From the UHGV virus genome UHGV-1361682: DNA of 47,597 nucleotides. The stretch is one strand, 5' to 3'. Positions within the stretch are counted from its first letter, which is position 1, and the number at the start of each line of letters is the position of its first letter. This DNA is from a virus. The translations under genes and the position numbers were made by a program. The notes beneath the pieces are model-generated. The model was not told where the DNA came from and made no database searches. It saw nothing but the letters and a program-made list of their open reading frames with translations. Positions 3,022-31,453 of the stretch are shown one piece after another.

Positions 3022-3412
3022 ACGACGTGGCATACTCACGAATGCTAGAAGTGCGTAGTCAGACGATTCCATGTGGCTTACTGGTTTCAGCCCGCATCCC
3101 GTCTGGTCAGGCAACGGCCCCGCTCTTGGCCCACCTTGTGGCGGGAACTCCCCCTGACAAAACGCACCTTGACTTCCCTGTCGGAACGGGGAAGGGTCTA
3201 GAAATCCTTCACCGGGTGATGGGCAAGCGAAGCTTTGCCCTTAAGTCACTTGGGGGGGTAGGGGGGGTGTGTCCAAAAACAACGCCGTAGGCGTCCGTAT
3301 CGATCGTTGTTTGAGGTGCGGAGCACCGAGCGATCGAACAGGTACAAGGCCGGTGCAAACACCGGAACAACACAACCGAAGAACAGATCAAACACAATAC
3401 AAGGCACAGATC

Positions 3413-4015
3413 ATGGAAACAAAACACACGGTTGAAATCACCCCTGAAACACCAGTACAACACATCACCGTAGCAGAAGTGATAACACAACCCAACGGCT
3501 GTGTTAGAACCTATGTGGGCAGTATACCCACAGAGTGGGTGGAACGGATTCTGCAAAACGAAGAAGACACAGATCATCCAACACCCCTGCAGGCGTACTA
3601 CAAAGCCGTAGAACTGGATAACCCAATGGGTAGCAAGATCAGAATCTACAGTGCTAACAACAGCCTTGATGCGGTGTTGTTAGCACTTCAGTACCTGACT
3701 GAACCGGATGGAACACTGACTGCAGAAGCGGATGAACTGTGGAGTAAACACTTCTACAACACCGGGTACATTGATGGTACATGGGTGTTGTACGGCAGAA
3801 CCTTCGCTGATGATGAACGTGTTGGACAAGCTATTGCTGACAAGCTTGGCAACGGTTTTGACAGGTTCGATGGAATGGCTTTGCAACAGGTTATCTACGA
3901 ATCTACACAAGGCAGGGGTGTGTTGGGTACCAAAGCCAATCTGTTGGATTGGTACAGAAACAGAACCCGTGTAGGGTCCTTGGCTGAAGAACTTCGTGAT
4001 ACGTACCTGTTCTAA
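3413..4015 (+). CDS. Hypothetical protein, 200 aa
   Basis: Track ORF 3269..4015. The start is moved to ATG 3413, after a CA-rich leader, with AAGG 8 nt upstream. A hairpin follows the stop. Confidence 0.5.
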   Translation: METKHTVEITPETPVQHITVAEVITQPNGCVRTYVGSIPTEWVERILQNEEDTDHPTPLQAYYKAVELDNPMGSKIRIYSANNSLDAVLLALQYLTEPDGTLTAEADELWSKHFYNTGYIDGTWVLYGRTFADDERVGQAIADKLGNGFDRFDGMALQQVIYESTQGRGVLGTKANLLDWYRNRTRVGSLAEELRDTYLF

Positions 4016-5472: not shown

Positions 5473-6089
5473 AGTTCGAGTTTAAGCACGACGATTACAG
5501 CACGTACACCTTCCGGGCGTACGAGACCAAGTATGACCTTGCTGACCCATCCTATGACCGTGAAGTCGTGCGCATCTACAAGCTTGACACGGACACCATG
5601 ACGCTGGCCATCAGCAAAGCGGAGTATGCGGAACCGACTGTATACCTGCTTGATCAGGATGAGCGGAAGTTCGCGACACATACCCAAGTGTTCGAGCACC
5701 TGTTCATGACGGCGTTCGATCAGTCAAGCCCACCGGCGGACATGGAGCTGTCAGCTGTGCTGAACAGCCAGCTGGGTCAGGTGAAGCTGGTCGGGAACAC
5801 CCTTGAATTCCCAGACGGTATCGAGGTGCATGTCACCATGACGGCGGTCGATGGGGAAGCCATCGTGGCATATAGCCGTAACGGCGATGTGTTCCACAGC
5901 ACAGACGTAACGTACGCCGGGTCTCCGATAGTAAAGAACGTCTGGGCAGCCCTGTTCCCCGAGCGCTTCCAGCGGGACGCTGAGGAAGAGAAAGCACTGG
6001 CGATTGCTGAGCTGGAGAATGCAGTCCGTGCAGCCCGGCTTACGCTAGAACTGAATACTGAAAAACTGAAGAGATTGCAGAATGGATGA
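5469..6089 (+). CDS. Hypothetical protein, 206 aa
   Basis: Track ORF 5421..6089. GTG 5469 is chosen (GGAG 9 nt upstream, GTGA overlap with the previous stop). ATG 5421 is an alternative. Confidence 0.45.
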   Translation: MKFEFKHDDYSTYTFRAYETKYDLADPSYDREVVRIYKLDTDTMTLAISKAEYAEPTVYLLDQDERKFATHTQVFEHLFMTAFDQSSPPADMELSAVLNSQLGQVKLVGNTLEFPDGIEVHVTMTAVDGEAIVAYSRNGDVFHSTDVTYAGSPIVKNVWAALFPERFQRDAEEEKALAIAELENAVRAARLTLELNTEKLKRLQNG

Positions 6090-6666
6090 CGAACTTGAAG
6101 TATTCGCCCAAGGGATTCTGAAGTTTGACACGCTGCGGGTAACCGAAGTTGGCGACGCAAGCCGTATGCCTGACGGCGTTGATATCACCGTTGGTGCCGG
6201 CAACCGCTGGTTTGGTATCGAGGTGTTGCGTCGCGGGCTTCTGTACTACAAACAGTTCGGAGACGCGGACACGGACCAGCCCAGCTTTGACGCCAAAGCT
6301 TGGGCGGACCGGGCAGAAGAGGTCCTCAACGGCTCAACTGCGCGGGCGCTTATGCTGCTGTTCCATTGCACAGCAGCTGTCAGCAGTATGAACGCGCAAG
6401 TGTACCAGATCGTTTACGAGAATATCGATTGGTATGAGGAGGAATATGGCGCACCGCCCGTAGCTGACCCCCATGACAAGTCCCTTGTAAGCCTATTTGA
6501 CACCACGAATGAGGCTTACCTGCTTCTGCAATTCAAGGAGCCTAAGTACGCCGACACCTTCAACATGGCGATGCAGCGTGCGGTGGAACACGGGCATGAC
6601 CTCAATGACGTGATCCAAGACCTTGGCATGTGCTTGAACATGCTTGACCAATACGATTTAGACTGA
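6082..6666 (+). CDS. Hypothetical protein, 194 aa
   Basis: ORF track. It overlaps the previous stop. Confidence 0.5.
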   Translation: MDDELEVFAQGILKFDTLRVTEVGDASRMPDGVDITVGAGNRWFGIEVLRRGLLYYKQFGDADTDQPSFDAKAWADRAEEVLNGSTARALMLLFHCTAAVSSMNAQVYQIVYENIDWYEEEYGAPPVADPHDKSLVSLFDTTNEAYLLLQFKEPKYADTFNMAMQRAVEHGHDLNDVIQDLGMCLNMLDQYDLD

Positions 6667-14583: not shown

Positions 14584-15264
14584 AACCATGTGAAATCAGG
14601 GAACCCTTAGCTGGGAATCCTGAGTGCCGTGCATCATAGGAAAGGCTATGCGCACCATTGAAGATATGATCGAGAACACAACGCTCACTCTTAGCATGAT
14701 CGCTAAGGAACTGGGCGTTACGTTGAAGCAGGTTGGAAAGGTATGGCGGAAGTACCCGGCAGAGTTTCGTAAGCGCCGCAAGCATATTACGTACAGCCGG
14801 GCGCAGAAGATCCACACATGGATGATAGGACGGACTGGCGCCGATCACCCCAATTACAAAGGCGTGGTTGGGGACAACAAGGGGTATCTGATGATGCTCA
14901 AGCCTGATTGGTACACAGGACGCCGCGGTTCGAAGCATGTGTTTCTTCACAACATTGTAGTGTGCGAGCGCCTCAAGATTACTGAAATTCCGAGAGGCTG
15001 GTGTGTCCACCATGTGGATTTCGACCCGCATAACAATGAGTTTGACAACCTTGTCCTGATGACAACATCCGATCATGGTAAGTTACATCAATGGATGAAA
15101 CGGCATGCAACGACTATCTCGAAAGAGAGTACACTCAAGTGGGTGGAAGCGCATGGCACACCCTTCCAAAAAGAAGGTGCTGTGAAGATATAGTCTGATC
15201 TGCATGGAAACATGCAGCTGCCGAAAGGCGGGGCAGGGAGTAACGAACCTGCCCGAACACAATG
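14566..15264 (+). mobile_element. 699-bp insertion splitting the DNA polymerase gene exactly inside the GRLSxxxP|NLxNxP motif. It carries an HNH endonuclease ORF and is a candidate group I intron or homing-endonuclease insertion.
   Basis: The upstream exon would end at U14565 and the element ends in G15264, as expected for a group I intron. The 3' flank 15194-15264 folds into three hairpins, two of them with GAAA tetraloops. The HNH ORF is internal. Confidence 0.55.
14648..15193 (+). CDS. HNH homing endonuclease, 181 aa (HHVDFDPHNNEFDNLVLMTTSDH motif)
   Basis: Track ORF 14624..15193. The start is moved to ATG 14648, with AGGAAAGG upstream. The H-N-H catalytic motif is clear. The gene sits between the two DNA polymerase halves. 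Confidence 0.85.
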   Translation: MRTIEDMIENTTLTLSMIAKELGVTLKQVGKVWRKYPAEFRKRRKHITYSRAQKIHTWMIGRTGADHPNYKGVVGDNKGYLMMLKPDWYTGRRGSKHVFLHNIVVCERLKITEIPRGWCVHHVDFDPHNNEFDNLVLMTTSDHGKLHQWMKRHATTISKESTLKWVEAHGTPFQKEGAVKI

Positions 15265-19473: not shown

Positions 19474-19672
19474 TCGCAAGTGGGAAGACATCTTCTACGA
19501 CGAGCTGGCCGTGTGCGCTGAGACTGGCGCAGTCGGGCTCATGAAAGAACGGTACCACAGGCGGAAGCAGGCATTCGCTGAGCTATGGGCCGGGTCCGAC
19601 CACTGGGATGTGGTCAAGGCCAAGCTGGACCGCATCTACCGGGAAGTCAAGCAAGACTACAGGATCGAGTGA
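19457..19672 (+). CDS. Hypothetical protein, 71 aa
   Basis: In frame in track ORF 19271..19672. AAAGAGGA is upstream of ATG 19457. Its stop overlaps the RNAP start (ATGA). Confidence 0.45.
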   Translation: MSASYDRKWEDIFYDELAVCAETGAVGLMKERYHRRKQAFAELWAGSDHWDVVKAKLDRIYREVKQDYRIE

Positions 19673-22152
19673 TGAACTTCGATGAACTGCGAGCAGCAGA
19701 GCGGGTTCGTGAGATTACAACAGACCACGAAGCCCGCACGAAGGCATTGGAGAAGCTCAGCTCCGACATGGATGCAGGCCGGTCGAACTACGGCGCTGCC
19801 CGTGTCTGGCTGGCCGTGCACCACAGCACGGTGCTGGAAGCCCTGAAGGTGGTGTTCCAGGACATTGGCCGACGGGACTGGCGGTACCGTCTGTACGAGC
19901 GTATCGGCCTCTCTGAAGTGGCTGCCATCGCCATGACCACCCTTCTGGAAGTCACCGTCCCCCACGGTGGTAGCCATACCCTGGCTGGGTACCTGGTCAG
20001 GACTGGCCGGAACATCCAGGACGAGGAGAACGTCGGCCTGTACCGCGAAGCGTTCCCACTCGACTTCGAAGACTCTGCAGAGCAGTCCCGTGTCGGTCGG
20101 AACATGGTGATGAAGGATGCCCAGAAGAAGCTGGGCTCGATGCTCTCCAGCCGGTCTTCCAAGGAGCTGGCCCAGCTGGGGTTCTGGTGCTACGTGGCCA
20201 TGGACAGCTGCGGGCTCCTGCGTACCCTGAAATACCCCCGTAAAGCCACGAGAGTGGCCCTTGAAGGCGATGTCCTGCAGTTCCTGGGTGATTACCTCGA
20301 CAGTGATCTGGATCGCGTCTGGAACCGCCAGGAGAGCCGGATGCTGGCGCCGCCTGACCCATGGACGAACAGCATGGACGGTGGTTACCTGACGCCGAAC
20401 CGCAAGGCACAGGCCCCACTGCTGAAGCTCCACAGTGTCCGTAAGAGCCTGCGTGAGGAGTGGGGCCAGAACTGGTCAGCCCAACGGATGCCGAAGGTGT
20501 TCGCTGCAGTGAACTACCTGCAGTCCACTCCCTTCACAATCCATGAGCCCACCAGGAAGGCCATAACGGCCCTCTGGGACGCTGGAGGTGGTACCCTGGG
20601 TGTTCCCCTTACCCGACCCCCGATCGAGCCGCCATGGCCCTGGGAAGGGGCGCAGCGGCCGGATACGGATGAGGCGAATGCGCTGTTCCATGAATGGAAG
20701 GTCAAGAAGGCGAAATGGCACGTCCAACACGCCGAATGGCTGCAGCGTGTTCGTGAGGTAGGCGGACTGATCCAGGCCACCCGGGACATCGGAAAGCCGA
20801 TCTGGTTCCCCATGTACCTTGACTACCGGGGTCGAATGTACTACCGGGGCATCCCCAATCCCCAAGGCACGGACATGGCCAAAGGCGCCATCCACTTCTG
20901 GGAGAAGAAGCCCCTTGGTAAGCGTGGTGTGTATTGGCTGAAGGTGCACATCGCCAACAGCTACGGATACGACAAGGCCCGGAACGATGATCGGGCAAGG
21001 TGGACTGATGAGCACTGGAACGACATTGAACGGGCTCTTGATTGCCCAGCCGATGCTCCCGAAGTTTTCGGGGATGCGCCTTGGCAAATGTTCTCTGCGG
21101 CTTGGGAACTCCGGGAAGCCTACCGCTCCGGAGACCCCGAAAGCTACCTCTGCGGAGTCCCCTGCGGCGGTGATGCCACATGCAGTGGCTTGCAGCACTA
21201 CTCAGCCATACTCCTCGACGAGCACGGGGGGCCTATGGTCAACCTGGACAACGGTGACGGACTTGGGAACAAGGCCGACATCTACACCGGAGTCAGAGAC
21301 TGGGCCGTACGTGCTCTAGAATCCGACTACAGCCCCGTAGAGCGTTCGGACGATGGGACTGGTGTCATCACCCTACCCAGCGGAGAAATCGTCTCTAAAG
21401 ACCTGTACGAGTCTCGTAGGGCCACTGCCACGTGGTGGCTTGGGCGGGACATCACTCGGAGCATGGCGAAGAAGCCTGTGATGACCTACTCATACTCGGC
21501 AACCACCCGATCCGCCGGTGAGCATGTCTTCAACGAGCTGGTCGAGGAGTTCAAGAAGACTGGCGGGCAGTTCCGGATGAAGGGTGAAGGTTTCCGGGAC
21601 AGTCTGTTCCTGGGCCGGTACCTGTTCCGTGGGGTTGAGTCGAAGTTCCCTGGTGCAGCCCGGGCCATGGACTGGCTGAAGGGGCTGGTGAAGTCCTGCG
21701 GGGACAAGCCCACCAGCTGGACCACACCGTCAGGCTTCATGGTCTACCAGGATGTCCGGAAGGACAAAGCGGAGCAGCTCAGGCTGTACGCCAGACAGGA
21801 GCTGTTCAAGGTGGTTGTCCAAGGGGCGGTAGACGAGACCGATCCCCATGGCACGGAGATGGCCATGGCCCCCAACGTCATCCACAGCCTGGATGCCAGC
21901 CACCAGGTGCTGACGATCCACCGGATGATCGAGCAGGGGCTGAGCTTCATGGGCGTCCATGACTGCTTCTATACCCATGCTGGTGACATGGACTACATGC
22001 ACCGGGTACTGCGTGAGGAGTTTGTGGCCATGTACTCGGGCGACTTCCTGCGCCAACTCCGGGACCAGCTGAACCCGGAGTACGAAGACCCTCCGGAGCA
22101 AGGCGGCTTCGATCTTGGCCAAGTCTTGGATTCGGAGTTCTTCTTCTGCTGA
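19672..22152 (+). CDS. Single-subunit DNA-dependent RNA polymerase (T7 gene 1 family), 826 aa
   Basis: Motif A-like DATCSGLQHYSAIL (T7 DGSCSGIQHYSAML), motif B-like RSMAKKPVMTYSYS, motif C VHDCFYTH (T7 IHDSFGT), and C-terminus ...SEFFFC (T7 ...SDFAFA). The track ORF is longer (from 19585), but the start is set at ATG 19672, overlapping the previous stop. Confidence 0.9.
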   Translation: MNFDELRAAERVREITTDHEARTKALEKLSSDMDAGRSNYGAARVWLAVHHSTVLEALKVVFQDIGRRDWRYRLYERIGLSEVAAIAMTTLLEVTVPHGGSHTLAGYLVRTGRNIQDEENVGLYREAFPLDFEDSAEQSRVGRNMVMKDAQKKLGSMLSSRSSKELAQLGFWCYVAMDSCGLLRTLKYPRKATRVALEGDVLQFLGDYLDSDLDRVWNRQESRMLAPPDPWTNSMDGGYLTPNRKAQAPLLKLHSVRKSLREEWGQNWSAQRMPKVFAAVNYLQSTPFTIHEPTRKAITALWDAGGGTLGVPLTRPPIEPPWPWEGAQRPDTDEANALFHEWKVKKAKWHVQHAEWLQRVREVGGLIQATRDIGKPIWFPMYLDYRGRMYYRGIPNPQGTDMAKGAIHFWEKKPLGKRGVYWLKVHIANSYGYDKARNDDRARWTDEHWNDIERALDCPADAPEVFGDAPWQMFSAAWELREAYRSGDPESYLCGVPCGGDATCSGLQHYSAILLDEHGGPMVNLDNGDGLGNKADIYTGVRDWAVRALESDYSPVERSDDGTGVITLPSGEIVSKDLYESRRATATWWLGRDITRSMAKKPVMTYSYSATTRSAGEHVFNELVEEFKKTGGQFRMKGEGFRDSLFLGRYLFRGVESKFPGAARAMDWLKGLVKSCGDKPTSWTTPSGFMVYQDVRKDKAEQLRLYARQELFKVVVQGAVDETDPHGTEMAMAPNVIHSLDASHQVLTIHRMIEQGLSFMGVHDCFYTHAGDMDYMHRVLREEFVAMYSGDFLRQLRDQLNPEYEDPPEQGGFDLGQVLDSEFFFC

Positions 22153-22156
22153 CACA

Positions 22157-22200
22157 AGGCCCATCTGGGGTTCAGGCCCCGGGTGGGCCTTTGTCGTTTG
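22157..22200 (+). terminator. Rho-independent-type terminator after the RNAP gene
   Basis: AGGCCCATCTGGGG-ttcag-CCCCGGGTGGGCCT forms a 14-bp stem (two G-U pairs in RNA), followed by TTTGTCGTTTG. Confidence 0.55.
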
Positions 22201-22216
22201 CGTGGTCCAAACTGGA

Positions 22217-22238
22217 TGCCCACTAGTAGGAGAAGAAA
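22217..22238 (+). promoter_or_regulatory. Phage-RNAP promoter candidate P1: TGCCCACTAGTAGGAGAAGAAA
   Basis: A 22-mer that recurs at 22294 and 23035. CACTAGTAGGAGA resembles the T7 promoter core CACTATAGGGAGA. No ORF follows it, so it is not an RBS. Confidence 0.55.
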
Positions 22239-22293
22239 TCCGATTCCAATCCTTCACTGATCATCCACCTGTGGCTTCACAGCCACAAGTAGG

Positions 22294-22315
22294 TGCCCAG
22301 TAGTAGGAGAAGAAA
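22294..22315 (+). promoter_or_regulatory. Phage-RNAP promoter candidate P2: TGCCCAGTAGTAGGAGAAGAAA
   Basis: Matches P1 at 21 of 22 positions, 77 bp downstream of it. This gives a tandem pair immediately after the RNAP gene. Confidence 0.55.
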
Positions 22316-22339
22316 CCATCTCGGAACTGTTCAACGTTG

Positions 22340-23034
22340 TAGCGTTTCGGCGCCAGACGCGTTGGGCAGGGGTTCGCCCCCCTGATCCTCCCCGCCTTTG
22401 ACCGTTCGGCCCCCATACCGGTCTTAGGCCCAGTCCCAGCGATAGCTCACCTTATCCGCACGTGGTGTATGTGTTGATGATGTATGCTGTTGTACCGGTT
22501 CAGACCCGGTGCCTCCTGGTGTTGACCTCCTGTCCTTCTCTATCAGACCCAATCCCGGGTTCTGGATTGAAGAGTACCCATAGGGTGCTTGTACAGGGTG
22601 GTACTGTCCTTGTGGACGGTTAAGACATAGCCAGGTGGTAAGGATAGATCACCTATCAGGTGCTCATCAGTGTTGTTCTCTTCTGTACGGTGTTGTACCA
22701 GTACAGCACTATCCTTGTGTCTATGCTCTTGTAGGCATACACAAGGATAGTGTTTGTATTGTTATATACCACAGCGGAAAGGATAGACTGAGCGGGTTCT
22801 GGTACGGGGAAGGAAGGGGGCGCGTTTTATATATATATAGAGGGGTCTGAAGACAAGCGCTAAGTGCTTGATTTTAAGGGGTTTTTTCTGTCAAAAATGG
22901 TGTCTTGCTCAGAGCTCGCACAGATTGTGAAGATTGTAACAGCGTCTAAGTACTTGATTCCATTGAAGATTTCGCATTGTGGAACAGGATCGGGTGCTGG
23001 TGTCCATCCTAGCCAAGGATCATGCCAAACTGGG
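22340..23034. other. Candidate primary replication origin and control region: low-GC noncoding DNA with AAGGATAG repeats, a 13-bp perfect inverted repeat, a (TA)n tract and an 85-bp-spaced direct repeat
   Basis: No convincing ORF. AAGGATAG occurs at 22640, 22743 and 22779, with inverted copies near 22710. TTTTATATATATATAG lies at 22826-22840. AGCGCTAAGTGCTTGATT (22857) and AGCGTCTAAGTACTTGATT (22941) are near-repeats. The position matches the T7 origin, which lies downstream of gene 1 behind tandem promoters. Confidence 0.45.
22707..22752. repeat. Perfect 13-bp inverted repeat CACTATCCTTGTG ... CACAAGGATAGTG separated by 20 bp (cruciform/hairpin-capable)
   Basis: Read directly from the sequence: arms at 22707-22719 and 22740-22752. 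The spacer contains the smaller palindrome TATGC..GCATA. Confidence 0.8.
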
Positions 23035-23055
23035 TGCCCAGTAGTAGGAAGAGGA
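23035..23055 (+). promoter_or_regulatory. Phage-RNAP promoter candidate P3: TGCCCAGTAGTAGGAAGAGGA, 10 bp upstream of the first post-RNAP gene
   Basis: The first 16 nt are identical to P2. The 3' part doubles as the SD for ATG 23066. Confidence 0.5.
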
Positions 23056-23065
23056 CCCCATCCCG

Positions 23066-23500
23066 ATGAACCTGAACTACCACTACAACTCCCCCGAATG
23101 GCTGACCCTGACAGGGATAGCCTGCAACCTACTGACTGAGGCGAGAAGCCGGTACCCGAGGTGGGCAGAGTCATGGACCGATGACGAGCACTGCCAGTAC
23201 CTCGAAGCACTCCTGCTGGAAGACTGTGACCAATGGGTGCTTGTGGCTGTGGATGACAAGACTGAGGAAGTCACGTCCATGGCTATCGTGACCAAAGACA
23301 TCGATGCCCATGTGGGGCACTGCTTCAGTGTCCTTGCGAACTTCAACCGGACCGACGCTGTGGACACACGCTTCCAGCGGTACGTCCACCGGTTCGTTCA
23401 GCGACTGTCCCGGGATGCGCAGCGTCCCTACTACTGCTACACACACATGCTCCCTGATGGGTCTGGGTGTGTGACCAAACACATGAAGGTACCCTCATGA
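23066..23500 (+). CDS. Hypothetical protein, 144 aa
   Basis: ORF track. It is immediately downstream of P3. Confidence 0.55.
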   Translation: MNLNYHYNSPEWLTLTGIACNLLTEARSRYPRWAESWTDDEHCQYLEALLLEDCDQWVLVAVDDKTEEVTSMAIVTKDIDAHVGHCFSVLANFNRTDAVDTRFQRYVHRFVQRLSRDAQRPYYCYTHMLPDGSGCVTKHMKVPS

Positions 23501-23850
23501 AGAGCAAACTCATCCGGAAGCCCCTGCACGCGGTTGCCAAGCCCCTTGGGCTGTCTGGCGTGACCGACCAGCTCACTGGCATGGCCAAGCCACAAGTCCC
23601 CGACGCTGCCACGGCGGCTGTCAACAACGGCCCGTCGCCTGTCGAGCAGTCGCAGATCGCTGCCAACAACGCCATCGCTGCGGCGCAGGCTGCGGCCACG
23701 AACCTTCAGCGGAACTTCTCCCAGAACCTCCAGAACCAGAACGTGTCCCAGGTGGTCCCCGGCGGTGACGCCGCTGTGACCAGTTCCGGCACGTCTGATC
23801 CCCGCCGGAAGCGGGGTCTGCAAGGCGTCTGGTCTTCACTCGGATTCTGA
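23497..23850 (+). CDS. Hypothetical protein, 117 aa, Ala/Gln/Asn-rich (possible virion or assembly protein)
   Basis: In frame in track ORF 23467..23850. ATGA overlap with the previous stop. GAAGG is 9 nt upstream. Confidence 0.5.
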   Translation: MKSKLIRKPLHAVAKPLGLSGVTDQLTGMAKPQVPDAATAAVNNGPSPVEQSQIAANNAIAAAQAAATNLQRNFSQNLQNQNVSQVVPGGDAAVTSSGTSDPRRKRGLQGVWSSLGF

Positions 23851-28391: not shown

Positions 28392-30740
28392 ATGCCCCCG
28401 CTGTGGCAGGGGGTCACCCAGCAAGACCCACAGTTCCACAAGCCTGGGCAGGTGCCAAACCTCGTCAACATGTTGTGCGATCCTGTCACCGGCCTGCGCA
28501 GGCGTCCTGGGATCAGGTCCACTGCGGACTACGCCTTCAACGGCGGCTTCACGAACGACAGCCTGTTCCACCAGGTGGTCGAGGTCTCTGGTACCCAGGT
28601 AATCGTTGGGGTGAACACCCACACTGGCCAGCTGTACCTGTGTGCCCCGACCACTGGGGACGTCTTCACCCAGTGGGGTACGCACGACTACTTCAAGGCT
28701 ACGAACCGGTACTACATCCAGACGGCCATCGTCGGGGACAAGCTGTTCGTGGCCAACCTGGAAAAGAAGCCCACAGTCGAGCGGAACACCACCACACAGT
28801 CCCTGCGTGAGTCCGGCTTTGCCTACGTGGCCTCCGGGGCCTTTGGCAAGACGTTCCAGCTGCAGGTGTCCTTCGCTGGGCCTTCAGTAGGCCGTTCAGT
28901 ATGGTCTGAGTACAAGACCCCTGATGGTTCCCAGCCGGGGGATGCCGAGAAGGCCACGCCCGAGTACATCGCTCACCAGCTGGTGACGAACCTCCAGAAC
29001 ATCGTAATCAACTCCGGCCCCTGGAATGGCAAGAAGGTGTCGGAGATGATTCACATCGCCAACGAGGGTGGGTACATCGCCTTCCGGGCCAACCGTGGGT
29101 CAGGCACAGACCAAATCACATCGGTGACCTCCACCACGGGGGTCACATGGATCGTGACATCAGGTACCGGACATGTGCTTAACTCCGGAATGCTCCCCGG
29201 GGTGAACCACTGGCTGCTGAACGGTGCCGTGTTCCGTGTGGGTTCTGGCGACTCTGCCCCGTACTTCCGGTGGGATGAGAACCGTAAGGCTTGGCTGGAG
29301 ACGGCTGCCCCTGGCAGCATCACAAAGATCAACAACGCTCCCGTGGCTGTCTGGTGGAATGGCACCACGTGGCTGCACAACGCTCCAAACTTCTTCTACG
29401 GCCGGAAGGCTGGGGACGATACGTCGAACCCCGAGTTTGCTTGGCTGACTGAGGGAATCTCAGGCATCTTCGGCTACCAAGGCCGTCTGGGCATCTTGTC
29501 CGGCTCCAAGGTGGCCCTGAGTGCCTCTGGGAAGCCCGACGTGTGGTTCAGGACAACTGTGACTGAGCTGCTGGACTCTGACCCAATCGAGGTGGCCACA
29601 AGCTCCCAGAGCGCCGCTACATACACCCAGGCCATCCAGTACCGCAAGGACGTGCTCATGTTCAGCTCCCAGCACCAGGCTTACATGCCGGGTGCCAACC
29701 GGGTGCTGACCCCGAGGACAGCCACGGTGCAGGGTATCGACCAGTACGGTGCCAACTCCAGGGTAGCTCCACAGGTCGTGGGGCCGACCCTGATGTTCTG
29801 CAGAGACCTGCCAGGTGGGTACACCGGTGTCATGGAGATCAACCCTGCCACCCAGGTGGAGGGTGAGTACCAAATCTTCGACAGCACACCACACCTGCCC
29901 CGCTACTTCAAGGGCAAGGCCCGGTTCTTCCGCGCATCCGCGAATGCCCCGATGGCCGTGATGGCCACGGACAACGACTACACTGAGCTGTTCGTGTATG
30001 AGTACGCCTTCGACGGCCAGGAGCGTATGCAATCTGCCTGGCACAGATGGGTGTTCCGTCACACGATCGTCGATGCCTTCTGGGTTGGGCCTACGCTCTT
30101 TATCGTGCAGGCTGAGGGTGACCGTGTGTTCTATGGGACCATCGACCCCCGCGGGGACGCTGTGGCCTTCCACCTGGACCACTGGAAGAAGATGCACTGG
30201 GATGGCCGCTGGTGGGTCATCCACAACACGAGTGCTCCCAGCTCCCCGTCAGGCGACCAGACGTACTTCTATGCCTCACCGACTGACCCAATGTATGGAT
30301 CTGAGATCATCGGTTCCCCTGCTGTGGGGACGGTGGCAGCAGCTGGTCTAGCCTACATCTCTCGGGTGACTCTGCCAGAGGTTGCCGTGACAGGTACTGA
30401 CGGCCGGCCTGTACCCCTACGGGACAGCACGGTGTTGCGGTATGACATCGGGCTGAACGATGCCTATGCCGTCTGGGCTTACCTTGGACGTGGGCAGTGG
30501 GGCAACCGCAGGACAGACATCCCGACTAAGATCATGACCCTGCAGCCTAGACGGTTCACCAATGGCCGTCTGCAGCTGGGCAGGTCCTGGGTGGTCCCGA
30601 GGGCATATTGTCAGCTCATCACCAGAGTAAAGGCGAACGACCACTACGTCACCCTGGAAGCAGTCTCGGGGTACCGGATGAACATCACCGGTGTGACTTA
30701 TGCATTGCAGTACACACCTCTGTATCCAAGGAGACAGTAA
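28392..30740 (+). CDS. Tail tubular protein B (T7 gp12-like), 782 aa
   Basis: Track ORF 28341..30740. The start is moved to ATG 28392, with AGAGGA 6 nt upstream and adjacent to the previous stop. The N-terminus (GVTQQDPQ...GLRRRP) resembles T7 gp12 (GISQQP...GLQKRP). Confidence 0.75.
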   Translation: MPPLWQGVTQQDPQFHKPGQVPNLVNMLCDPVTGLRRRPGIRSTADYAFNGGFTNDSLFHQVVEVSGTQVIVGVNTHTGQLYLCAPTTGDVFTQWGTHDYFKATNRYYIQTAIVGDKLFVANLEKKPTVERNTTTQSLRESGFAYVASGAFGKTFQLQVSFAGPSVGRSVWSEYKTPDGSQPGDAEKATPEYIAHQLVTNLQNIVINSGPWNGKKVSEMIHIANEGGYIAFRANRGSGTDQITSVTSTTGVTWIVTSGTGHVLNSGMLPGVNHWLLNGAVFRVGSGDSAPYFRWDENRKAWLETAAPGSITKINNAPVAVWWNGTTWLHNAPNFFYGRKAGDDTSNPEFAWLTEGISGIFGYQGRLGILSGSKVALSASGKPDVWFRTTVTELLDSDPIEVATSSQSAATYTQAIQYRKDVLMFSSQHQAYMPGANRVLTPRTATVQGIDQYGANSRVAPQVVGPTLMFCRDLPGGYTGVMEINPATQVEGEYQIFDSTPHLPRYFKGKARFFRASANAPMAVMATDNDYTELFVYEYAFDGQERMQSAWHRWVFRHTIVDAFWVGPTLFIVQAEGDRVFYGTIDPRGDAVAFHLDHWKKMHWDGRWWVIHNTSAPSSPSGDQTYFYASPTDPMYGSEIIGSPAVGTVAAAGLAYISRVTLPEVAVTGTDGRPVPLRDSTVLRYDIGLNDAYAVWAYLGRGQWGNRRTDIPTKIMTLQPRRFTNGRLQLGRSWVVPRAYCQLITRVKANDHYVTLEAVSGYRMNITGVTYALQYTPLYPRRQ

Positions 30741-31453
30741 TGGTATGGTGGATGGCAGCCGCCTTTGCGGCGTCGGCGGCCACGTCGATCCTGGGCAGTC
30801 GGAAGCAGGCCAAGCAGGCCCAGGCTGCTGAGGATTGGCAGAACAGGTCCAATGCCGAGGCTGAGTCCAAGCAGATCATCAAGGATCGGTTGGCCGCATC
30901 GGTGAGGAACGCGTACGCTACGGCTGCCCGGGCTTCGGCCCTGGCAGTCCAGAAGCAGCAGCTGGCCAATGGCCAAGCCAACACGAGGGCCGCAGCTCTG
31001 GCGGCAACTGGGACGGCTCGGGCCAACAATGCTGCAACAGGGACTGAGGGGGCCTCGGCACAAGCCGTGGCCACAGACATCCAGATGAAGATGCAGGCCG
31101 ATATCGATCAGCAGAACCTGAACTACAGTCAGGCTGTTGACGATACGAACCAGGAGCTTGAGACCCAGCTGATGAACACCAGGATTGGCGCTCCTGATGG
31201 TGTCCGGAACTACTACTCCTCTGGGGTGGGCAAGTCCTGGAAGCAAGGTGCCTGGCTTGGCCTGGCCAACGCTGCGATTGGCTTCGGCATGCAGTACATG
31301 AACGCCAAGGCCAGCCTGGGGGCTGGTGCTGCGGACAACACACCCAAGAACCTGGGATCGGGCCTGAGGGCTTCTGTGAACAGGGCTGGGGGCTTCTCAA
31401 CGAACGCTGGTACCGGCCTGAAGATGGGCGGTGGTACTGGCCTACGACTGTAA
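30740..31453 (+). CDS. Internal virion protein A (gp14-like), 237 aa, Ala/Gln-rich
   Basis: In frame in track ORF 30608..31453. ATG 30740 overlaps the TAA of the previous gene, with AAGGAGA upstream. It is the first of three consecutive internal-core-sized genes. Confidence 0.6.
   Translation: MVWWMAAAFAASAATSILGSRKQAKQAQAAEDWQNRSNAEAESKQIIKDRLAASVRNAYATAARASALAVQKQQLANGQANTRAAALAATGTARANNAATGTEGASAQAVATDIQMKMQADIDQQNLNYSQAVDDTNQELETQLMNTRIGAPDGVRNYYSSGVGKSWKQGAWLGLANAAIGFGMQYMNAKASLGAGAADNTPKNLGSGLRASVNRAGGFSTNAGTGLKMGGGTGLRL

Follow-up and report, generated by a model that had tools for sequence, protein, structure and literature searches.

Background

The gap between the gene of a single-subunit, T7-type RNA polymerase (RNAP) and the first late gene of the virus genome UHGV-1361682, a stretch of 47,597 nucleotides that we call the window throughout, was proposed in an earlier note as a candidate primary origin of replication, on account of tandem phage-promoter-like 22-mers, iteron-like repeats, an inverted repeat and a (TA)n tract. 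ColE1 RNA II is a folded transcript of ~550 nt whose G-rich segment, together with downstream A/T-rich DNA, defines the primer site, and the integration host factor (IHF), with the consensus WATCAANNNNTTR, has sites at oriC, at lambda attP and cos, and at IHF-dependent promoters. In phage T7 every origin needs a phage promoter, the primary origins correspond to two promoters downstream of gene 1 (phi1.1A and phi1.1B, with an AT-rich region), and secondary origins take over once the primary ones have been deleted (PMC8373140). In LUZ19, long-read mapping of 5' ends located four phage-specific promoters, two of them directly after the RNAP gene (PMC10914365), and the strong promoter of KP34, T(A/G)ATGTTACAGGAGTA, stands right behind the RNAP gene, ends in AGTA and starts transcription at the next base (PMC6834552). 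Bacteria and phages have few large structured RNAs, and the biochemistry of these tends to be unusual.

Set beside these systems, the gap of the window is probably a control region for late transcription that carries a dedicated, accessory, large structured RNA. Two tandem copies of a predicted phage promoter (P1 and P2) are followed by a gene-free module of ~520-590 nt, running from 22306 to ~22895, and a third copy (P3) precedes the late genes. The module resembles ROOL (~580 nt) and GOLLD (~800 nt) in size class, non-coding character, number of helices, phage context and unassigned function (PMC5737381, PMC12286853), but no Rfam model fits it, it is so far known only from two lineages of one phage clade, it follows a predicted T7-type promoter and its covariation support is thin. 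Oligomers are seen for both ROOL and GOLLD. With the leader-derived non-coding RNAs of Pseudomonas phages, the putative RNA would share a start at a phage promoter ahead of a gene and an end short of that gene, but those RNAs are shorter than 250 nt (PMC10914365), whereas the module exceeds them 2-3 times in length and is followed by a separate promoter. The module differs from all of these RNAs in sequence, in its predicted T7-type promoter and in its promoter-module-promoter layout.

Results

Promoter-like repeats behind the RNA polymerase gene

The 22-mer TGCCCA(C/G)TAGTAGGAGAAGAAA, reported by the earlier note in tandem at 22217 and 22294, is exact at both positions, with a chance expectation of 0. 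Of the third copy placed at 23035, the 13-nt core CCCAGTAGTAGGA was recovered at 23037 and 79% of the surrounding 29-nt unit (23028-23056) is shared. The 29-nt unit, AACTGGrTGCCCAsTAGTAGGAgaaga, starts at 22210, 22287 and 23028, with no other occurrence on the two strands, and no further convincing copy of the 22-mer was found on either strand of the genome, the next best site agreeing at 19/27 positions. All three promoter copies of the 47.6 kb therefore lie in the gap and on the + (coding) strand. Their resemblance to the T7 promoter was well seen: the core agrees with T7 CACTATAGGGAGA at 10 of 13 positions by our own count and resembles the -7..+6 part of that promoter. A sigma-70 scan of 21500-23600 returned no host-type promoter, and searches for the promoter 15-mer elsewhere returned chance singletons only.

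P1 and P2 lie 58 and 135 nt past the stop codon of the RNAP gene and are 77 nt apart, while P3 ends 10 nt upstream of gene 23066, its predicted start being 19 nt upstream of this gene and its transcribed part (GGAAGAGGA) doubling as the ribosome-binding site. The predicted starts (Table 1) were placed by reading ...CCCAsTAGTA/GG, where the slash marks the start, by analogy with KP34. Across 14 sequences the P2 core is nearly invariant. In the relatives L001 and L132, P1 and P2 are merged into a single copy through a deletion mediated by the 29-mers, so that the duplication of the promoter is dispensable.

Related phages, in which a search for the 22-mer had been advised, have lineage-specific versions at the same place, each lineage having a repeated motif of its own: CYCAGTAGTAGG twice in L177-179 (three independent contigs, RNAP 80% identical), CCGYCCAATAGGAGAAAG twice in L180 (RNAP 69% identical) and GGCACCCATRTTGGGTACA twice in L008. 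Written out as promoters, these are TCCCCCAGTAGTA/GGGG and TACCTCAGTAGTA/GGAGG in L177-179, GCCGCGAAGTTACCGYCCAATA/GGAGAAAGA, twice, in L180, and GGCACCCATrTTGGGTACA, twice, in the L008 group (RNAP 43% identical). L177 and L180 also have an equivalent promoter directly before the first late gene. The 22-mers are therefore best read as promoters for the phage single-subunit RNAP, with activity and start sites predicted from these analogies, and as such they add new members to the phiKMV-type late promoters, a class already known. Like P007, P008 and P009 of LUZ19 and the KP34 promoter, they consist of a ~20-nt motif present in 3-4 copies per genome, with 1-2 copies behind the RNAP gene and ahead of the structural genes, and the AGTA ending with initiation at the next base in KP34 corresponds to what we propose here. 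They differ in their sequence (GGNTGCCCASTAGTA/GGAG) and in being predicted promoters, in the position of the third copy, which sits just 740 nt downstream and directly ahead of the first late gene, not deep in the structural region, and in having no antisense copy when both strands are scanned.

The hairpin of the strong intrinsic terminator that closes the RNAP gene is kept in relatives, with equivalents in L177 and L180, and the hairpin between P1 and P2 retains its stem in L004, where the loop is inverted from TCAC to GTGA. The number of TAG units before the predicted start was seen to vary between lineages (CAGTAGTAGTAGG, CAGTAGTAGG and CAATAGG; L177 3935-3950, L178/L179 3938-3950, L180 5563-5572), which would shift the distance between the recognition region of the promoter and the start site. 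Between the final 30 nt of the RNAP coding sequence (22121-22150) and the first part of the P1 transcript (22225-22254) there is 80% complementarity, with the terminator enclosed; this pairing could make a long stem in read-through RNA, possibly a processing site, and the segment is deleted in L001 and L132.

A constrained non-coding module with a strand-specific fold

The gap (22153-23065, 913 nt) is the largest in the crude map of open reading frames (ORFs) of the genome, in agreement with its earlier description as the longest non-coding stretch. No gene is called in it in 7 public assemblies, and the ORFs of the module gave no match among PHROG families. Pairwise diversity is 0.00-0.06 across 22350-22900 vs 0.11-0.21 at the fourfold sites of the flanking genes, i.e. 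~7-fold below neutral sites, and it climbs to 0.09-0.12 past 22900, which sets the end of the functional element near this position. The module is under purifying selection and has no coding capacity. Close relatives show indels in it (2 and 17 nt) and differ in the number of TA units, which ranges from 2 to 8 among 14 close relatives.

Folding excess was scored against dinucleotide shuffles, and the genome was scanned in 54 windows of 600 nt. Folded as RNA, the + strand of 22306-23070 reaches -299.5 kcal/mol (z = -5.4) and the minus strand -248.5 kcal/mol (z = -2.8), so that the + strand is more stable by 51 kcal/mol, and 22300-22899 has the biggest folding excess of the genome scan (-49 kcal/mol, z = -5.7). 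A coding segment, 30601-31200, gives the lowest z of the scan (-6.1), with an energy excess of -25 kcal/mol, half that of the module.

A consensus fold, derived from 8 and then 14 distinct sequences, comprises 215 predicted pairs, among which 35 are G·U. Both sides have changed with pairing kept in 5-6 pairs, compared with 0-1 in shifted-register controls, the compensatory types being C-G/U-A to A-U/C-G in one hairpin, A-U to G-C, G-C to U-A, and a G·U/C-G/A-U series. For two of the five measures used, namely compensated cells and the covariation score, 0/500 shuffles reached the observed value, and 9% of paired vs 21% of unpaired columns are variable (p = 2e-4). At several sites G·U alternates with G-C or A-U, and it is only for + strand RNA that changes of this kind are neutral. 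The C-tract and the G-tract are joined in a long-range duplex of -33.8 kcal/mol, with an equivalent of -36.3 kcal/mol in L180. Taken together, the module looks like a structured RNA on the transcribed strand, its role as RNA being a proposal drawn from these models.

This fold also accommodates the repeats on which the origin had been built. The AAGGATAG repeats exist as reported, at 22640, 22743 and 22779 on the + strand with an inverted copy at 22709, and these are all four copies of the genome; their designation as iterons fits less well, these irregular 8-mers being spaced by 103 and 36 nt and paired in a strand-specific fold with modest covariation support. The copies at 22709, 22743 and 22779 lie inside the long irregular hairpin, and that at 22640 lies just upstream in a small hairpin of its own. 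The inverted repeat is likewise perfect over the reported span, with arms of 14 nt and not 13 (22707-22720 and 22739-22752), and sits inside the same long hairpin. The TA tract, given as 22826-22840, is present and begins one base earlier.

Within the window, no Rfam 15 covariance model, those for large phage-associated RNAs, introns, ribozymes and riboswitches included, reached its gathering score, a permissive E-value scan returned generic microRNA-precursor hairpins only, far below threshold, and a scan for tRNA and transfer-messenger RNA found none. An apparent enrichment of GTAC was discarded, GTAC being common genome-wide (7 per kb) and other segments of the genome reaching an equal count.

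Presence and absence of the module in relatives

L180 has a gene-free gap of 836 nt with one promoter on each side and the same order of blocks, namely C-tract, CCCAGCGA hairpin, long hairpin, AGGATAGA-GAGCGGGTT-CTGG, G-tract, TTTT(TA)n-TAGAGGGG, IHF-type box, GGGTTTT, the conserved 26-mer of Table 1 and a second box. Its + strand folds with z = -7.8 and its minus strand with z = -3.3. The long hairpin stands at the same place with a different sequence and similar size and stability (z = -5.7 vs -6.9 in the window), and the basal stem of the 22439-22493 hairpin differs in sequence and is still paired (GCGAUAGC/GCUGUUGU vs GCGAGAC/GUCUUGU). The hairpin-plus-U-rich layout of 22854-22889 recurs as well, its stem sequence does not, and a single AAGGATAG copy is retained. 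Helices were aligned by hand across lineages; covariation counts between L180 and the window are unreliable, since sequence-based alignment misplaces the conserved blocks.

By contrast, L177-179 have only 133 nt at this place, made up of the terminator, one IHF-type box and two promoters, and lack the module, the (TA)n tract, the G-tract and the 26-mer. Since L180 carries the module and L177-179 lack it, we consider it old, selectively maintained where present and dispensable for such a phage, and the direct promoter repeats that bracket it make it easily lost by recombination.

Two perfect tandem DnaA boxes (ACTTATCCACAG, twice) were observed in L180 at 6079-6099, between (TA)3 and an IHF-type box, in an insertion of 11-12 nt relative to the window; they are the only ones in the 8.5-kb locus.

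IHF-consensus boxes upstream of P3

The 19-bp near-repeats reported at 22857 and 22941 form a pair 86 bp apart, with limits at 22860-22873 and 22946-22959 and 93% identity over 14 nt. On the minus strand both read as perfect matches to the IHF consensus, and no others occur in 47.6 kb, where 0.32 would be expected; both have an A/T-rich 5' flank. A box of the form AATCAAGNACTTAG occurs after the RNAP gene in eight divergent lineages (relatives L007-9, L012, L018-20, L023, L144, L177, L180 and L182-183), in either orientation and usually as the sole such match in 8-14 kb; an IHF-type box was looked for in phiKMV and is absent. Being conserved, near-unique and found in either orientation, the box is probably a DNA site. 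The near-repeats fit the IHF consensus, and IHF may bind them, as in known IHF sites, which they resemble by perfect 13-nt matches, by A/T-rich sequence 5' of the core and by conservation across lineages. They differ in that the box is more specific than the consensus, so that its ligand could be another protein.

Downstream, 22946-23027, from IHF box 2 to P3, is near-neutral (diversity 0.09-0.12) and looks like spacer, and 22930-22945 is a hypervariable patch. Near the IHF-type box of L018 (9290-9570; also in L019 and L020), a long stretch devoid of genes, which follows the RNAP gene, was seen to carry about two dozen TAGTA-containing units phased at ~11 nt, an array far more iteron-like than anything in the window.

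Genomic setting

The window represents the genome of a phiKMV-like podophage (59% GC), in which the RNAP gene, at ~47% of the genome, closes the DNA-metabolism block and is followed by the portal, capsid, tail and terminase genes, an order of phiKMV type and not of T7 type. Public gene callers start the RNAP gene at 19672 (826 aa). Independent contigs end 24.5 kb downstream of gene 23066, at the same point as the window, which is therefore probably a complete linear genome with the region of interest near its middle; the genome ends map away from the gap. Near-identical contigs are present in many metagenome assemblies, and the phage is probably widespread in human-associated, likely oral, metagenomes. 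A search of INPHARED returned nothing close and just weak RNAP similarity, exact-word scans of IMG/VR for the module returned the same six contigs only, and genome assemblies searched for the host gave no useful match.

As previously noticed, GC content drops in the gap: 22501-23000 has the lowest value of any 500-nt window (0.472, compared with ~0.59 for the genome), and the lowest 300-nt window begins at 22676 (0.43). Other low-GC patches (0.39-0.47) occur at 1151-1310, 3351-3700 and 14926-15130; the first two are poorly coding and near the left end, where GC skew is negative to ~3.5 kb, and such patches could hold early promoters or another origin. Cumulative GC skew is uninformative on the origin, because coding on one strand dominates it.

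In most relatives, the first gene after the RNAP gene encodes a protein of ~55-65 aa (F..Q...LE..FP ... YFG.Q.V); this ~60-aa YFGxQ gene occurs among others in L008 (8786-8971), L011, L012, L013, L014, L016, L017 and L055, and is absent from the window and from the L177 and L180 lineages. A decayed version of it in the window was considered and rejected, tblastn with ten YFGxQ-motif proteins revealing no remnant.

Table 1. Coordinates of the features of the gap and of its flanking genes in the window (dot, no strand assigned; slash in a promoter, predicted start)
Feature	Position	Strand	Remarks
Single-subunit (T7-type) RNA polymerase gene	19585..22152	+	PHROG 414 RNA polymerase, E 2.9e-176; public gene calls give Pfam RNA_pol
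Intrinsic terminator of the RNAP gene	22156..22201	+	16-bp G+C-rich hairpin, then TTTGTCGTTTG; terminator scan
Promoter copy P1 (predicted)	22210..22238	+	AACTGGATGCCCACTAGTA/GGAGAAGAAA; predicted start G22229
Hairpin between P1 and P2	22256..22301	+	Inverted repeat I2; overlaps the upstream part of P2
Promoter copy P2 (predicted)	22287..22315	+	AAGTAGGTGCCCAGTAGTA/GGAGAAGAAA; predicted start G22306
Core of the non-coding structured module, putative RNA	22306..22824	+	Low diversity, fold excess, compensatory changes, L180 homologue
C-rich strand of the long-range helix	22375..22393	+	Pairs with 22806-22824; RNAalifold consensus helix 5, 17 pairs, invariant
Invariant hairpin	22439..22493	+	22 pairs, 7 G·U; consensus fold
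Long irregular hairpin	22660..22795	+	-64.1 kcal/mol, z = -6.9; G-C to U-A compensated in one pair
3' strand of the long-range helix	22806..22824	+	GGGGAAGGAAGGGGGCGCG; G-tract 22806-22820; block conserved in L180
TTTT(AT)n microsatellite	22825..22840	.	TTTTATATATATATAG; unpaired in the model
Small hairpin and U-rich tract	22854..22889	+	CAAGCGC-TAA-GTGCTTG, then AUUUUAAGGGGUUUUUUCU; possible 3' end/terminator of the RNA
IHF-consensus box 1	22861..22873	-	AATCAAGCACTTA; putative site
Conserved 26-mer between the boxes	22909..22934	.	TCAGAGCTCGCACAGATTGTGAAGAT; 25/26 identical in L180, same relative place
IHF-consensus box 2	22947..22959	-	AATCAAGTACTTA; putative site
Promoter copy P3 (predicted)	23028..23056	+	AACTGGGTGCCCAGTAGTA/GGAAGAGGAC; predicted start G23047
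First late gene	23066..23500	+	144 aa, function unassigned; then virion protein and portal; PHROG 3986, 3112, 449

Discussion

In the late-transcription control region that we consider probable, transcription of the RNAP gene would end at its intrinsic terminator, and the phage RNAP would then start at the tandem P1 (G22229) and P2 (G22306), and at P3 (G23047). The transcript of the module from P1 and P2 would fold into a multi-helix RNA of ~520-590 nt, ending probably near 22854-22889, P3 being then required to drive the late genes, and the two IHF-type sites that flank the 26-mer upstream of P3 would probably bend the DNA. We favour an abundant late RNA acting in trans, in host takeover or counter-defence, over a purely cis-acting leader.

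Several observations weigh against this interpretation. Covariation is modest, the sequences within the lineage are ~95% identical and recombine in blocks, the structure was derived from the same sequences that were used to test it, and 24-76/500 shuffles reached the number of pairs with changes on both sides. The left arm of the 14-bp inverted repeat shows 2-3 uncompensated changes in L004 and L005. The helix between C-tract and G-tract is of low complexity, and because non-cognate duplexes across lineages are about as stable as cognate ones, the cross-lineage duplex test did not discriminate and the helix is conserved but not proven to covary. A covariance model of the long hairpin (R1) found its best L180 match at the corresponding place with E = 0.49, lost with default filters, and the helix joining the 5' and 3' ends of the RNA is not clearly retained in L180. 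The candidate 3' end (hairpin 22854-22889 with its U-tract) scored too low to pass the terminator scan. Under DNA energy parameters the two strands are about equally well folded (z = -6.3 and -5.7), which leaves room for a role as single-stranded DNA. Finally, the firing of the 22-mers, their start sites, the action of the module as RNA, its 3' end and the binding of IHF are what we infer from the sequence.

The position of the module between promoters and late genes also suits a long 5' leader of the late operon, without function of its own, which would tune the timing, processing or stability of the P1/P2 transcripts through conditional termination at ~22890 or processing by RNase III. In Pseudomonas phages, among them LUZ19, 5' leaders commonly yield short RNAs by premature termination (PMC10914365), the leader of the L008 group is strongly folded (z = -6.7), and purine-rich tracts rich in G-runs follow late promoters in L008 (8550-8670), L011 (3630-3670), L013 (8130-8180) and phiKMV (L186, 2030-2090). 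However, P3, 19 nt before the first gene, bypasses such a leader wholly, the strongly constrained 520-590 nt go far beyond the known needs of an attenuator, and the sister lineage L177-179 has the same late genes without the module. Since L180 repeats the promoter-module-promoter layout, a separate transcription unit is suggested, and we regard a leader of this kind as unlikely. An element acting as double- or single-stranded DNA, such as a protein-binding array, a cruciform, phiKMV-like nick sites, or a recombination or packaging signal, would account for DNA-parameter folds of both strands well above shuffles, for the IHF-type box in both orientations among relatives, for the clustering in the module of all genomic AAGGATAG copies and for the deletion mediated by the 29-mers in L001 and L132. 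It is made very improbable by the 35 G·U pairs and the switches that are neutral only for + strand RNA, by the 51 kcal/mol that separate the two strands as RNA, by genome ends that lie elsewhere and by the chance-level occurrence of the phiKMV nick consensus CGACNNNNNCCTACTCCGG, of which only 3-mismatch matches were found (9, with 5 expected). As for a neutral filler, i.e. a decayed gene or a junk insertion between duplicated promoters, the module is missing in a close sister lineage and the small gene of most relatives is missing here, but the ~7-fold deficit of diversity, the block order and fold retained in a lineage with 69% RNAP identity and the failure to find a remnant of the small gene by tblastn leave this explanation with hardly any credit.

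The origin itself, in which transcripts of the tandem promoters would prime DNA synthesis as at the T7 primary origin, deserves closer comparison. The T7 origins need phage promoters and the primary pair stands after gene 1 (PMC8373140), so that P1 and P2 could also prime replication. Tandem promoters behind the RNAP gene recur in LUZ19, L008, L177 and the window, the lowest-GC stretch of the genome is inside the gap, which lies near the middle of an apparently complete linear genome, two IHF-consensus sites adjoin the (TA)n tract, and in L180 (TA)3, two perfect DnaA boxes and an IHF box are found within 60 bp. The T7-like setting, however, is only partly matched: the two promoters just past the RNAP gene and the reduced intergenic GC are shared, but the 150 nt after P2 have GC contents of 0.46, 0.72 and 0.64 in three 50-nt windows and do not show the AT-richness of T7, low GC sets in at ~22650, ~350-500 nt downstream, the gene order is phiKMV-like, and a module of ~550 nt with a conserved fold intervenes. 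The gap is bordered by RNAP and virion genes, with no adjacent initiator gene, the length of the (TA)n tract is unconstrained, and the DnaA box TTATCCACA has no exact copy in the window, the 1-mismatch copy at 22452 being one of 12 genome-wide. No iteron-type array, regular and typically of 17-22 bp, was found, the repeats being of 8-12 nt with one inverted, and the AAGGATAG copies are irregularly spaced 8-mers paired in the fold, one of which is kept in L180. The module, (TA)n, G-tract and 26-mer are missing in L177-179, a weak counter-argument given that T7 tolerates the loss of its primary origin. The locus does not look like a classical replication origin, and the listed features, better explained as RNA helices, a microsatellite and IHF-consensus boxes, give an origin no support; priming from the promoter pair is doubtful, although we still count it among the readings to be considered.

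A version of this origin modelled on ColE1 RNA II would have the folded transcript of ~520 nt set the G-tract beside the meltable (TA)n, with IHF bends helping the opening. The distance from P2 to (TA)n, 524 nt, is comparable, but there is no antisense regulator here, the phage is lytic, of T7 type and has its own replisome, and any hybrid formation or RNase H cleavage would be hypothetical. At its boldest, the module, most likely a new large RNA, would represent a previously undescribed family (~550 nt, in the size class of ROOL), expressed as its own T7-type-RNAP transcription unit, and would act as an RNA II-like primer handed to the replisome at the IHF-bent (TA)n, which we hold to be quite unlikely; if true, it would amount to an RNA-structure-controlled origin in a lytic T7-type phage.

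A putative RNA unit driven by a T7-type promoter, in a phage present in dozens of public metagenome assemblies, would be easily made in vitro and probed, and the window and L180 vs L177 constitute a natural deletion control for the module. The three related pairs of RNAP and promoter, with their different promoter sequences, may serve as orthogonal expression parts. With regard to where phiKMV-like phages start replication, one candidate locus is now named that can be tested. Finally, the IHF-type box behind the RNAP gene in eight lineages hints at an unrecognised input of a host factor to late transcription or replication.

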